Positions 44,398 to 55,850 of a stretch of DNA of 64,000 bases are shown here, piece by piece. A program made the position numbers and the translations under genes. The notes beneath the pieces were generated by a model, which made no database searches, was not told the origin of the DNA, and saw nothing but the letters and a program-made list of their open reading frames with translations. The stretch lies in NCBI RefSeq assembly GCF_040938485.1, contig NW_027271496.1, positions 124,001-188,000 of the forward strand, given 5' to 3'. How positions within the stretch are numbered: the first letter of the stretch is position 1; each line of letters opens with the position of its first letter. Origin of the DNA: Diadema antillarum. Taxonomy: Eukaryota.

Positions 44398-45718
44398 CGG
44401 GACACTGGAAGGGCTCTCCTCCCTAGGCCTCCTTCCACCCCAGGGACTGATGGCTCACTAGGAGTTGCTGTGGAAACCTCTCCACTAGCAGGTACCTGCG
44501 GAGGGTGGGTAGGCTCCACCGGAACGTCCCATGACCTCCCTTGGGAGGACTCCTCCGACTTAAACTCTGCCTGTGGGGGCATCCCCTTGGGGCGCGGCCA
44601 CAGCACTATGCTGGGCCGACTGACCCGCAGCTGGAGTGGGGTCCACGGGGCCACGTGGCTCCCCCGGACGTTGCCCTAGCCGACGAAATTCTCCCCATTG
44701 AAGGGGGGATACCCGTGCGGCCAGGAACAGCAGCACCCTCCAGTGCATCAGTGCTGCGCGAGAATTGGGAGGTCTTAACATAAGCCTCTCGGGAATTTCC
44801 CACCCATGACGGCGGGATGTTTGCCTCATCTCGGCAGCCGCTCCCTCCGGGACCAACTCCGCGGGTCCTGTCCACTCCCTCACCACCATCTCCAGGAGTT
44901 CCTCCAAGCCTCCGCTTCCGACAATGCACCCCGCCAGATACTGAAGGGCACTTAGCCGCAACGGATGCAGAACATCGGCGTTCCAGCTTCCACTCACCGA
45001 GGTACGGAAACAGTCGGGGAGGTGTTTTTGCAGATGCCTGCGCCTCTGCACGACTACTTTTCCACACCCTGGGATGGGACATGGAGTCCGATCCTTCTGC
45101 CCTGGCGGGGTCTCTCTCGGGGGCACAGATGGCTCCGCTCCCTTGGGATGGGATCTCCCCCCTGTGCTCATTGGACGAACAGGGACAGGGGCTGGGGCTG
45201 TAGGAGGCTGTCGCCCACTCGGAGTTGAGCCTGCCTTATGCCCCTTTCTTCGCGCCCTCCCCTTAGTCCATGAGCCTTCCCCGCCTTTTCGGGTACGGGG
45301 GCCGCCCTAGGGGGCGTCACGACACGAGGGCGGGGGGCTGCCTGGGCCTCTTGAGGCGCCATGGCCAGAGCCTCTGCTGCCGCATGCCCGCCAGCAACGT
45401 TGCGGGAAGGGATCCGATGGGGAATGTTCGCCAAGATCCAATCCACGCTCCGCACCGGCCGGCACGCCAGCTGCAGGGCTCGCACCCACCACCACTCGCC
45501 GCGAGATGCTGCCAGCTGGTACTGGGCCCTGATGAGCGTGTCCACTCCCACCTGACGGTGGAAATGGGGCTCACCTTGTCCCTGCACCAGCAAGACGGGG
45601 TCAAGTAGCTCCCCCCGGTGATGCCGGACCCAGAGGCATTCTAACAGGGACAATTCGCCTAGGTCCCTGGCATCCTCCCCCTACCCATACTGGGCCAGTT
45701 GCCTGATCCGCTTGCCAT
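44398..45718 (-). pseudogene. Frameshifted N-terminal part of ORF2: unknown domain, C2H2-like finger, conserved HWR domain, linker
   Basis: Acceptor ttctctctgttccag (AG at 45721-45720) then ATG at 45718; pieces 45168-45653, 44560-45171 (CPIPGC...RRHLQKH; PPNSRAALMHWRVLLFL) and 44316-44654 join to TatD through about four single-base shifts. Confidence 0.7.
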
Positions 45719-45907
45719 TCTGGAACAGAGAGAATGAAACACAAGATCATTTATTAATTAATTCAATTATTGCATCCTTTCTAATTGCCCAAAGAGGGAA
45801 TTCAACATCCCTTGGACATTATTAAATTACAACTCTCATTCACACAATCACTAATTTCCATAACATCAATTTCTCTTGTGCCCATTTCTGGAGGGACCAT
45901 CTCTCTG

Positions 45908-46940
45908 TTACACTAGCTGTGCTTGAGGGCTCGCGCGGTGTGTGTGCTGGAACCACTGGACCCGTTCCAAGGCTTGGTCCAGGGTGCCAGGCTTCATAGT
46001 AAGCGCGTGGAACCCGGCCTCCCTGTCCACGCAGCCTTGGCAAAAGCGCAGCGCCTGCTGCCGCTGCAGCTGGTCAGGCTGCAGGCCCGGGAACGCGCAC
46101 GCACCAAGATAAGCAACCCGGTCGGCCCAATCCAAAATGGACTCGTCAGCCGATTGCTTCGCGATTCCGAATTCCAACTGTGTCATCCCAGGATGTTCAT
46201 AGGACCCAAAACGCTTCGCGCATTTCTCGACTAAGTCGAAACACTCCATATGGGGCTGGGCAGAGGTAAGGGCCACGAAAAATTCGCTGGCCTTCCCCTC
46301 CAGACACCAACACAGCTGGTCCTTGCGCTGTGTGGCGTTCCAGCCGCACGAACACGCGTAAGAATCGAACTTCGCGTGGAAGGCCTGCCAGCTGCCCTTA
46401 CCATTAAAAGTAATGGTCTTAGGCATCGAAGCCCACGCGGGTCGCGCACTACCGGTCGCACCCTGGCTTGCGCGCTCCTGAGGGCCTTCCCTCCACTCCC
46501 ATCGGTCCATGCGCGCGTCGCGAGTTGGGAGTGGGCGGCGGTGTGAGGGCCCCACTGCGTCATAGGCGCCATAAGGAGGGACGGACCGGAAACCCGGTCG
46601 TGGCCCTCTCCCTTCTGGAACATCCGGCGACGCGGGAGTCCCACCACCCACGAAATCGCGCGGGGTACTCTCCATGCCGGGGGAATCCCCCCAGCGGAAA
46701 ATGCCGGCCCGCGGGCAGACCCCAAACTGGTGTCAACCTGCGACTGTGCAGGGCGAAAATCAAACCAATCGAACAAATGCAACGCATCAGGCCAGGACGA
46801 GAACAAGTCGGGAGAAATCCCCTCCCCCCCAGCTCATACCTCGCATCCATAATGCGATGCATGATCGCCCGGTCCATTCCCGGGACCCTGCACAGCTCTT
46901 GATAAGAGCAGGAGTTCATCAAAGTCTTGCTCGTAGCCAT
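45908..46940 (-). pseudogene. Gag-like ORF1 with an N-terminal helix-hairpin-helix motif (two frameshifts, C-terminus probably truncated)
   Basis: MATSKTLMNSCSYQELCRVPGMDRAIMHRIMDAR (HhH-like), then FNGKGSWQAFHAKF...LCWCLEGKASEFF...QLEFGIAKQSADESILDWADRV...RFCQGC (retrotransposon capsid-like). Confidence 0.8.
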
Positions 46941-47244
46941 AATATGCTGCAATCTACTAGCGATCACACGAAAGGCGCCGCTAGTACAATCCTAACTCTA
47001 ACACCTATACTGCAGAAATGCGCAGTGCAATGAGACTGTCACGCGGACCCCCAACAACTGATGGGTGGACCAAAAACAACTGCACTACCAGGAAGCTAGT
47101 ATGAATATGAATACAAACAATTGAACACTTAAGTATGGCCAAATAAGGCGCACAAATGTATGACAGCAACTCTAAGTGTGACCCTACTATACGGTAAACC
47201 AAAACCGCAGGGAAAGGACACACAATATCCGACACAGGCAAATA

Positions 47245-53585: not shown

Positions 53586-53789
53586 AAGTGTGACGGGACA
53601 TATGATCATGTAGCAAACATAAACACTGTACATCAGTATAATTTCTTCACTGTGTACTGTGTGACTTTTTGGAATATTGGACCAATGAATCTGCTATTTC
53701 AAGTGACTTTGTTTGGAAAACTATTGTCGTATATGTATGCAAAAGTAATACATACATTATCTTACGTGTAAAAGCTGACTGAAGAATGT

Positions 53790-54440
53790 TCTCCAAAGAA
53801 ATTACAATGAAGAATCTTTCACTGTTACAATGTACTTATCTGGCAATGCATTCCCAAACGTAGGACACGTTTTAGTGTTCAGTTCATTGTACATGCCAAG
53901 GTATGTATAGCATTTGGTACAGTCAAAATGTTGCTCGATATCTCCTTTCACATCTTTACTGAAAAATCTCTGAAATACCTTGAAAGACGTACAGCACAGA
54001 TTGTCACTCAAACAGTGCCATTCAATCAATGTTCAAAGGTCCTGAGCGCATTCTCCGGGCAGTCCATGACGCATTATAAAAGTTGCAATTACAATCGTGC
54101 TAATCATCTCTGTCAACCTGCTTCCTTTATATATCGGCTGATCTGCCTGGTCCACTGGTTTGCCAACGTCCTGCCTCTGATTGTCTTGATTAAGTTCAAC
54201 TTCAGGTTCTGACACCTCACCAGTGGTGTCACTCACCTCAGCGTGGGCTTCATCTTCTTCAACATCACTCTCACCAAATTGCGATGACTCAGTTTCAGAG
54301 TCAAAATGACAATGTGCACGATGGTTTTCATTATCTGATGTGGCCAAAACATTGGGCTCATGCTCAAACTCATCCTCAATATCATCACTCTCCTCACTTT
54401 CTACAGCAGAACAGGCTGCTACATAACTTAATTTATCCAC
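53790..54440 (-). pseudogene. EnSpm/CACTA-like transposase N-terminal relic
   Basis: An acidic tract then IATFIMRHGL.GECAQDL*TLIEWHCLSDNLCCTS...HFDCTKC...CPT; family assigned from remembered motifs. Confidence 0.55.
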
Positions 54441-55059
54441 TTGCCCAGTCGGGCAAGCAGGTTTCCAAATTTGCTACAAAACACTTGCCCAAACATGAAT
54501 TTGACTTGTCAGAAAAAGATTCCAAAATATAAGGAAATTATTTAGGAAAATGTGTCAGTCAAGGGCCTTATACAACACGATCATTTGAATAAACAGCACA
54601 CATTGATTCGCACGCTTAATCACAATGGAGTAACAAACTCTGTCCAATTCAATGTTGCCGCGCTGGTTTGCACTTGGGCTTCTTCACGTATGTGTCGGAC
54701 AGTTGTTGCAATGAAATATTGTAGTGTGTTGCATCAGTAAACAGCCATTATATCTGGGCTTCTGTATGGCTGACTTTGTGGGTATGTTGGGGGAATAAGT
54801 GAAAAACAGGTGGCTTCAAAACTTTTTACTTGCCCAAGTCAGGAAGCATTTTCTTATTGTTCAAAAATGCTTGCCCGAATTCAATATTTCTTTTGCCCAG
54901 GCCAATTGGGCAAGTGCTTATGTAGCACCATGCACAAGTTTCACTCGCTTCTTCATTGAAATTACATGCCCCATCTGTCTCCATGCTTCTTCTTGATACA
55001 GCAGGTAAAGGGCCTACTTGATCACCTTCAAAAGCATCCACCGAACAGTCATCACTAGG

Positions 55060-55850
55060 AGCTGAAAATAGCAAGACACATTATGTAAAAGAGGCCCCTG
55101 CCCCCTGCTGGTGTAATCCAGCCCCACCTTACCCATTGCACGGATGCCTGGATTACACAGCAATCCACCCAGGGCATCGACCTCCTGCTCCCCAGCAGTC
55201 TTTGCATGCTTGGGGTGAATCCCCACAGACATGAGTCAATTCCTGTCCACTGGGAATTTGACCTCATTGAACTGAGCCGGATCACAATAATTGATAACCC
55301 CGCCCGTAAGGTGAATGGGTACCCTGGGAGGGCAGCCCGCCTCCGCCAAGGCTAAATCTTGCCCTCGCTTGAGAGTAGTCTCCTCTGGCCCGGCACAGGA
55401 TGTGGGCCGAACTTCTGGAGGTGCTACCCCTCCAGAGGCTTCCGAGGACACTGCTCCTCAGCCATTAGGTGAAGCCACCCGTTCACCACCATTAGAGGAA
55501 CTCCTCACAGTGGGGCAGGGTGTTGCCGCGCTGGCCGCAGCAGCCTGGGCTGGTTTAGCTGAGGTGCCCTCAGACCAAAGTGAGAGGAATTCTTCCCACT
55601 GCTCATGCGAGAGCCAATTAATGAGCCAGGCCAGTGCTCTCCAATGCAACAGCACTGCCACAGGCGAGCTTGTCCTCACCCTCAGCTCAGCTGGACACCT
55701 CCAGCCAATGGTGCGAATCAGGCACTCCATTTCCCTCGCCAGGTGCTCCGGCACTTCCCAGCTATATTCATTGGGTGCCTCCTCATCCAACAGGGTGAGT
55801 AGTTACTACAAATCATTGCTGGATGTTAATGCATGAGCGAGGAACTGCAG
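55060..55850 (-). pseudogene. Second, diverged HWR-domain plus TatD relic
   Basis: VPEHLAREMECLIRTIGWRCPAELRVRTSSPVAVLLHWRALAWL...QWEEF, then PPRVPIHLTGGVINYCDP...SVGIHPKHA...GKVGLDY; stops present, DSHFH region missing, catalytic Glu reads Lys. Confidence 0.85.

Follow-up and report, generated by a model that had tools for sequence, protein, structure and literature searches.

What are the two short coding segments, conserved in protein but not in DNA, that stand before TatD nuclease sequence in one stretch of the Diadema antillarum genome? The stretch, called the window below, comprises 64,000 nucleotides (nt) of contig NW_027271496.1 in RefSeq assembly GCF_040938485.1 (positions 124,001 to 188,000), and coordinates count from its first nucleotide. 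A preliminary description made from its letters alone had reported an unnamed domain of about 100 amino acids (aa), marked by an HWR motif, in two deeply diverged copies, and had read them as an old, selected architecture in the order C2H2-like finger, HWR domain, linker, TatD. Both copies are almost certainly decayed pieces of the third open reading frame (ORF3) of a Ty3/Gypsy long terminal repeat (LTR) retrotransposon lineage, an identity absent from that description, and neither is an open gene. The peptides quoted for them were all found, on the minus strand (the strand had not been given):

45081-45064, minus strand: copy 1, CPIPGC (finger)
44958-44929, minus strand: copy 1, RLSALQYLAG
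44700-44686, minus strand: copy 1, QWGEF
44115-44089, minus strand: copy 1 TatD, GGVLNYYDP
44037-44020, minus strand: copy 1 TatD, VGIHPK
55862-55833, minus strand: copy 2, KVSCLQFLAH
55601-55587, minus strand: copy 2, QWEEF
55304-55278, minus strand: copy 2 TatD, GGVINYCDP
55226-55209, minus strand: copy 2 TatD, VGIHPK

The two copies align by tblastx with 42% identity over 59 aa (E = 5e-17 for the linked matches together), against a best blastn match of 18 nt (E = 0.095), and both run on into sequence that Pfam assigns to TatD_DNase (E = 4e-32 for copy 1, 1e-5 for copy 2). This protein likeness is far above chance. The depth of divergence is that between two element families, and each has a young near relative, at 94% DNA identity for copy 1 and 85% for copy 2.

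The retrotransposon context emerges from a search of the whole genome with the domain, in which 71 candidates were scored and 52 matches retained, at 47 places of which 46 were examined. TatD sequence lies within about 2.5 kb downstream at 34 of these 46 loci, and among the 12 others four have a TatD piece 3-6 kb further on. Gag or pol sequence was found upstream at 29 of the 46, with flanks of only about 1.5 kb at 13 places. Fifteen related regions were read at length: 12 of them are young insertions, each with a pair of LTRs 99.3-100% identical, and the target duplications, read by eye, are of 4 bp in 11 regions and 5 bp in one. The Ty3/Gypsy hallmarks, namely LTRs, target-site duplication, primer site and polypurine tract, are present in the window element that carries copy 1 and in those 12 of 15 regions; in the C590 family the LTR ends in TA.

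The young relatives share a layout of helix-hairpin-helix (HhH) Gag, Pol with a PHD finger, and ORF3. In a Pfam scan of five pol, four gag and four ORF3 frames, Gag has the HhH at its start (2/4), a capsid-like part and a zinc knuckle. Pol contains protease, reverse transcriptase (RT), RNase H and integrase, in the Gypsy order, with the PHD finger at the C-terminus in all five frames, and the RT motif is FLDD in six families out of six. The sequences behind the HhH-Gag, PHD and FLDD observation are L032, L035, L037, L045, L051 and L065. ORF3 matched TatD_DNase and nothing else in Pfam in the four proteins scanned, with no envelope family among the matches. At most 250 nt from the pol stop, a pyrimidine tract followed by YAG and an ATG is found in all six families, in frame with ORF3 in five of them; the same combination fits 22 of the 1168 ATGs across the elements, ORF3 starts included. 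The NCBI gene model P0211 (879 aa) begins at such an acceptor-associated ORF3 ATG. A donor-like AG/GTAAGT was also seen at the end of pol in C325 and C750, 60-85 nt upstream of the ORF3 acceptor. A Pol-ORF3 fusion through the donor-like site at the pol stop was considered and rejected on the frame and the position of the stop.

Copy 1 lies inside an 8.4-kb LTR-bounded element, whose features are as follows:

50807..50810, minus strand: 4-bp target-site duplication CTCC, first copy
50278..50806, minus strand: 5' LTR (TG...CA), which contains an internal tandem duplication of 90 bp; identity to the 3' LTR 96.2% over 421 nt
50264..50276, minus strand: primer-binding site for host tRNA-Ser(AGA), whose 3' end it complements
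46941..50263, minus strand: 5' leader of 3.3 kb, in which a 12-nt motif occurs eight times
45934..46940, minus strand: gag, broken, its 3' end cut short (helix-hairpin-helix, capsid and zinc knuckle in relatives)
45930..45936, minus strand: junction of an internal deletion of about 4.85 kb, placed by comparison with the relative on contig C706
45716..45742, minus strand: polypyrimidine tract and CAG, a putative splice acceptor, with the ORF3 ATG at 45718
45410..45660, minus strand: conserved N-terminal segment of ORF3, about 80 aa, limits approximate
44653..45093, minus strand: copy 1 finger and HWR domain, C-x4-C-x9-H-x3/4-H and then six helices
43432..44238, minus strand: copy 1 TatD, group II (HxH), metal ligands present
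42818..42831, minus strand: polypurine tract
42382..42817, minus strand: 3' LTR
42378..42381, minus strand: target-site duplication CTCC, second copy

Compared with the C706 relative (91-94% DNA identity in gag and in ORF3), the element is missing about 4.85 kb at 45933, a loss that took the last part of gag and almost the whole of pol. Because pol is lost, it is a non-autonomous derivative, and an older one. Its ORF3 is interrupted by in-frame stops in the stretch that joins the domain to TatD, and indels shift the frame near 45680, 45275, 44590 and 44415. The primer-site pattern occurs seven times in the genome, and ARAGORN called tRNA-Ser(AGA) at all three places that were fetched. The leader motif, GTAGRCTTATAC, has its eight copies between 47247 and 48747 when read on the plus strand, and matches the window nine times against 0.37 expected; the 5' leaders of relatives are likewise long, with internal repeats. 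The segment of about 80 aa at the start of ORF3 (also in L002, L025, L027 and L030) recurs in 13 of the best 150 database matches of the domain, and gave no match in Pfam.

Copy 2 is a patchwork of four pieces of the C325 family: 33 nt of the LTR start, 48 nt of late pol, and 476 nt and 273 nt of ORF3, the ORF3 pieces being 84-92% identical to the family. A lone LTR of the same family lies nearby:

55942..55974, minus strand: LTR-start piece, 33 nt, C325 family
55861..55908, minus strand: late-pol piece, 48 nt
55563..55877, minus strand: HWR domain, finger missing, two in-frame stops
55113..55385, minus strand: TatD fragment with one stop, its HxH motif deleted and its C-terminal two thirds absent
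52807..53136, minus strand: lone LTR, no clear target-site duplication

An origin of copy 2 as a retrocopy of a spliced RNA was rejected, as the C325 relative has no GT...AG pattern at any of the three junctions of copy 2. Around copy 2 and the lone LTR (52600-53600 and 55980-56400, minus strand) are several decayed copies of a coding piece of about 150 nt, which resemble DNA-transposase fragments; Pfam gave no match for them. Elsewhere in the window are two tandem arrays, at 6219-6990 (71-bp unit, about 11 copies) and 18463-20085 (256-bp unit, six copies).

We then considered the domain itself. The finger and the HWR part had been described as separate modules, a division that does not stand, as they form a single domain of about 140 aa. 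AlphaFold2, run with 62 sequences, gave one compact helical unit of 149 aa (predicted local distance difference test, pLDDT, 90.6; predicted template modelling score, pTM, 0.86). The finger ligands are kept in 129-139 of 145 domains, mostly as C-x4-C-x9-H-x3/4-H, and the domain is predicted to bind zinc. Apart from these ligands, conservation is highest at L, P, W, A, G, R and N positions, mainly hydrophobic or proline. Among polar residues, R47, N113, S114, H120 and R122 are kept at 75-88%, no acidic residue is conserved, and in 17 of the 145 domains Y or F stands in place of H120, the histidine of HWR. A homodimer prediction, made with no alignment, scored 0.00 and left the fold uncertain.

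That the domain matches no known family was borne out. Pfam gave nothing on the copy 1 domain; over 62 members, among them the intact relative L027 that represented copy 2, it gave scattered weak matches, at most two members per family and none to C2H2, and NCBIfam gave no match for eight members. With the model, the best Foldseek E values were 1.6 in the PDB and 0.69 in BFVD, and VIA-align against 48,161 chains reached at best Z 3.2 (root-mean-square deviation 3.5 over 69 aligned residues), to XRE-type helix bundles. The best ESM Atlas scores for the domain, 0.87 and 0.81, are leads only, and the absence of a fold match in PDB and BFVD does not establish a new fold.

Protein searches by word index missed the domain almost entirely (0 matches among 586 candidates, 3 among 6409), and a full scan of 1.84 billion sequences, with a HMMER profile of eight natural copies, was needed to reach the family. 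It returned 421 clusters at 50% identity with E≤0.001, of which 184 had E≤1e-10. TatD is present in 72 of the best 150 of the 421 clusters, always downstream of the domain, and among the matches listed it follows in 52 of the 57 that have at least 300 aa after the domain, with a linker of 15 to 754 aa. The five exceptions comprise three proteins with unrelated tails (two of them named Mytilus) and two giant ankyrin proteins. Thirty clusters were looked up, and the eight carrying species names are all from sea urchins or bivalves. One Mya arenaria cluster has 13 members, seven of them 824 aa long, spread over 11 contigs of unequal length, and two gene models fuse the domain with Gag or protease sequence.

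The preliminary description was right that the domain is tied to TatD, and none of the findings it had named as fatal to its reading (a match to a known family or to the N-terminus of TATDN2, or a lack of linkage to TatD) was made. The link is obligatory in neither direction. One active family has TatD without the domain, and the ankyrin proteins have the domain without TatD. The first (contigs C18, C198, C633, C945 and C606; L073-L075, L087 and L088) encodes gag, pol-PHD and an ORF3 of about 410 aa with TatD and neither finger nor HWR part; its LTRs are 99.3-100% identical, and the family nearest to it by RT (78%) carries the domain. The second are the ENA proteins P0117 (2992 aa) and P0135 (2942 aa), each with five tandem, longer finger and HWR modules between ankyrin repeats; a profile built from these modules matches 134 of 145 element domains at E<0.001. 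A further variant is a young non-autonomous family with a protease fused in frame to ORF3 (C71, C598, C1239, C1698, C2, C429 and C1099; L010-L018), in which the domain is retained, TatD is shortened and the HxH motif is altered. In three ORF3-like proteins (P0001, P0002 and P0007) the domain is doubled, and the TatD of P0002 and P0007 has lost metal ligands.

Is the architecture old and selected, as had been proposed? The domain is under purifying selection in the element lineages, with a ratio of nonsynonymous to synonymous substitution rates (dN/dS) of 0.14-0.22 in the four unsaturated pairs of seven (five of 10 pairs, saturated or nearly so, were excluded). The trees of RT/RNase H and of TatD have the same topology for six families, with supports of 90-100, which fits one old capture followed by inheritance with the element. 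Identities between families are 66-86% for RT, 38-65% for TatD and 27-56% for the domain. The proposal therefore stands for the retrotransposon lineages, and not for the two decayed copies of the window.

The element TatD is assigned to group II from its motif, an HxH followed by E, H, H and D, the HxH being the mark of that group (PMC10085689). The six metal ligands (H7, H9, E94, H130, H155 and D205 of YcfH) are intact in 52 of 64 element TatDs, 56 taken from the database and 8 from the Diadema genome, window copy 1 included. Element TatDs form one clade, with 100 in the Shimodaira-Hasegawa-like approximate likelihood-ratio test (SH-aLRT), apart from 22 host TATDN2 sequences. A second TatD tree combined 23 element and 14 host sequences with 34 from bacteria, 6 of these named and the other 28 a random sample of 71 metagenome rows. 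The metagenome scan behind this outgroup yielded 80 loci, alike in the TatD part alone (24-32% identity), none of which gave an element context in another species. In this tree the elements are joined with TATDN2 on one branch, to the exclusion of bacteria (SH-aLRT 99.4, FastTree 0.99), and the element TatD was likely captured from an animal gene, judging from this placement. Among solved sequences, its best matches are bacterial YcfH proteins.

What, then, would ORF3 do? The best explanation, which we hold tentatively and a little short of even belief, is that it encodes the element's own nuclease for RNA-DNA hybrids, tethered by the finger and HWR domain. The protein would probably be translated from a spliced subgenomic RNA, like retroviral env, because of the acceptor-like site just past the pol stop in each of the six families, and would probably be nuclear, because of a basic stretch (9-15 K+R in 40 residues) just before the finger in 4 families of 5. 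Its TatD part would likely come from an early animal TATDN2 gene and would likely have retained a preference for RNA over DNA in hybrids; in R-loops, it is the RNA strand that human TATDN2 is reported to degrade (PMC10711561). The finger and HWR domain would probably be a non-catalytic binding module that tethers the nuclease to nucleic acid or chromatin, given its mainly hydrophobic or proline kept positions, the variable H of HWR, the doubled or five-fold repeats, and a linker both loose and of very unequal length. The AlphaFold model of a natural 470-aa protein with domain and TatD has two confident parts joined by a low-confidence linker, without docking (pTM 0.68). The element would gain from the clearance of R-loops or leftover hybrids off its transcribed or newly integrated DNA. 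Descent from TATDN2, the tether module and this benefit, taken jointly, are slightly less probable again. A bolder version, in which an old and active Gypsy lineage of marine invertebrates would have caught an early TATDN2 and coupled it to a zinc-binding domain of new fold, would aim an R-loop nuclease at its own loci and so sustain transcription against host silencing, with the domain reused five-fold in giant ankyrin proteins, appears to us rather improbable as a whole.

Several observations weigh against the hybrid nuclease. Its activity, binding and expression are putative. The elements already encode an RNase H, so a second hybrid nuclease is not plainly needed. In twelve of the 64 element TatDs a ligand is gone. 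The grouping with TATDN2 as sister joins long branches, with 29% mean identity of the element TatD to TATDN2 against 26% to bacteria, in a tree obtained by a fast search without bootstrap and with animal TATDN1 and TATDN3 left out. Tethering must be dispensable in the family that lacks the domain and has identical LTRs, and the domain is not clearly basic (K+R 13-20, D+E 11-18), which gives no support to nucleic-acid binding. Outside the Diadema genome, the Gypsy context consists of the two fused gene models and the dispersed Mya copies. Finally, group II TatDs other than TATDN2 are single-stranded DNA 3'-exonucleases and apurinic/apyrimidinic (AP) endonucleases (PMC10085689), so the substrate could be DNA.

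This last point opens the strongest alternative, unlikely in our view though a true contender, in which the same gene would act on DNA, as a 3'-5' single-stranded DNA exonuclease or AP endonuclease trimming complementary DNA (cDNA) ends, flaps or damaged sites while reverse transcription or integration proceeds, and the domain would recruit it to the particle or to the integrase complex. TATDN1, TATDN3 and the three Escherichia coli TatDs have such activities (PMC10085689), YcfH proteins are the closest solved sequences, and work on rotifers reports elements with a 3'-5' DEDDy exonuclease as ORF3 (PMC5408684). Yet the tree puts the element TatD beside TATDN2, not beside YcfH, and ORF3 starts from its own ATG in a frame separate from Gag-Pol, so that its packaging is not automatic.

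More doubtful still is a role in counter-defence, where the nuclease would destroy nucleic acids, such as small-RNA precursors or stray cDNA, through which the host senses or silences the element, and the domain would bind a host defence protein. An accessory gene long kept in the env slot and changing fast relative to RT would suit such a role, as would a domain that is lost, doubled and reused beside ankyrin repeats, which we suppose is frequent for interaction modules. However, the dN/dS measured is that of purifying and not of positive selection, accessory genes usually change faster than RT in any case, and the host partner is putative.

It is very improbable that the domain is itself an enzyme, or a nuclease inhibitor such as the antidote of a selfish toxin-antidote module. 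R47, N113, S114, H120 and R122 are well kept, and the doubled domain goes with a ligand-less TatD in P0002 and P0007, both of the proteins where both parts are present. Against this, the kept histidine gives way to Y or F, no acidic residue is conserved, the two-domain model shows no docking, and an active family with TatD and without the domain is incompatible with an antidote. As for the copies being host TATDN2 retrocopies or paralogues, or neutral cargo, with the domain as the N-terminal extension of TATDN2, the long N-terminal region of host TATDN2 and a public annotation that treats element proteins as ordinary genes could suggest it, but it is scarcely credible and already contradicted by the present data: host TATDN2 is a separate, multi-exon gene located elsewhere in the genome, with one exon 100% identical to a protein labelled Diadema antillarum; two different domain profiles found no match in any of the 24 TATDN2 proteins tried (best E 0.05, across 27 aa); and the element TatDs, a clade apart, are encoded downstream of pol and upstream of the 3' LTR, with a tree that parallels that of RT.

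Our literature search found no TatD-bearing LTR element, with Repbase, Dfam, subscription journals and supplements, which may describe them, outside its coverage. The main text of a mollusc LTR survey names neither TatD, PHD nor ORF3 (PMC6238403), and a squid paper names TATDN2 only in a legend. The present observations define a common domain, with a confident model and no family or fold match in the collections searched, and natural ORF3 variants, which have the domain once, twice or not at all, make the function of ORF3 testable on purified proteins. They also imply that multi-copy TatD genes annotated as "uncharacterized" or "metal-dependent hydrolase-like" in sea urchins and bivalves are likely transposon genes, which affects gene-family counts.

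How do these elements compare with known systems? The element TatD resembles the group II enzymes, animal TATDN2 and bacterial YcfH, by its HxH and downstream E, H, H and D and by the TIM-barrel pattern of its model, and TATDN2 in particular by a long N-terminal extension. It is nevertheless not host TATDN2: the two are about 29% identical, and the element protein belongs to a separate clade, has no introns, is borne by a mobile element, and holds in its extension a folded domain that TATDN2 lacks. In errantiviruses and retroviruses env is likewise a third frame, placed after pol and ahead of the 3' LTR, and its start codon too is preceded by an acceptor-like site; Drosophila gypsy-type elements, like these, use a tRNA-Ser primer and a 4-bp duplication. 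ORF3 is not env, however, its Pfam match being to TatD only in the four proteins scanned. The finger shares with the classical C2H2 finger (PF00096; YY1, SWI5) the ligand order C-x(2-4)-C ... H-x(3-4)-H, and a weak likeness over the first 45 positions of the domain (E = 0.011 to YY1; Atlas scores 0.79-0.83). It is not a classical C2H2 finger, as in 91 of 118 domains with the pattern the spacer between second Cys and first His is of nine rather than twelve residues, a spacer of 12 occurs in none of the ten commonest finger patterns, and it is a single finger continuous with a helical body.

The closest parallel is with Juno and Vesta, LTR retrotransposons of bdelloid rotifers that carry a DEDDy 3'-5' exonuclease or a GDSL esterase as ORF3; in that work, these ORF3s were gained several times and show no departure from neutrality within the genome, and their role is described as still open (PMC5408684). 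Both systems have the order gag-pol-ORF3, with a non-env enzyme of intact catalytic residues in the env slot, and in both the activity is read from sequence. The Diadema elements differ in having a TatD TIM barrel instead of a DEDDy enzyme, fused to an unnamed finger domain, and a single TatD clade that follows RT across families and spans sea urchins and bivalves. They thereby extend, by one class of nuclease, the small set of enzymes found in the env slot of LTR retrotransposons.

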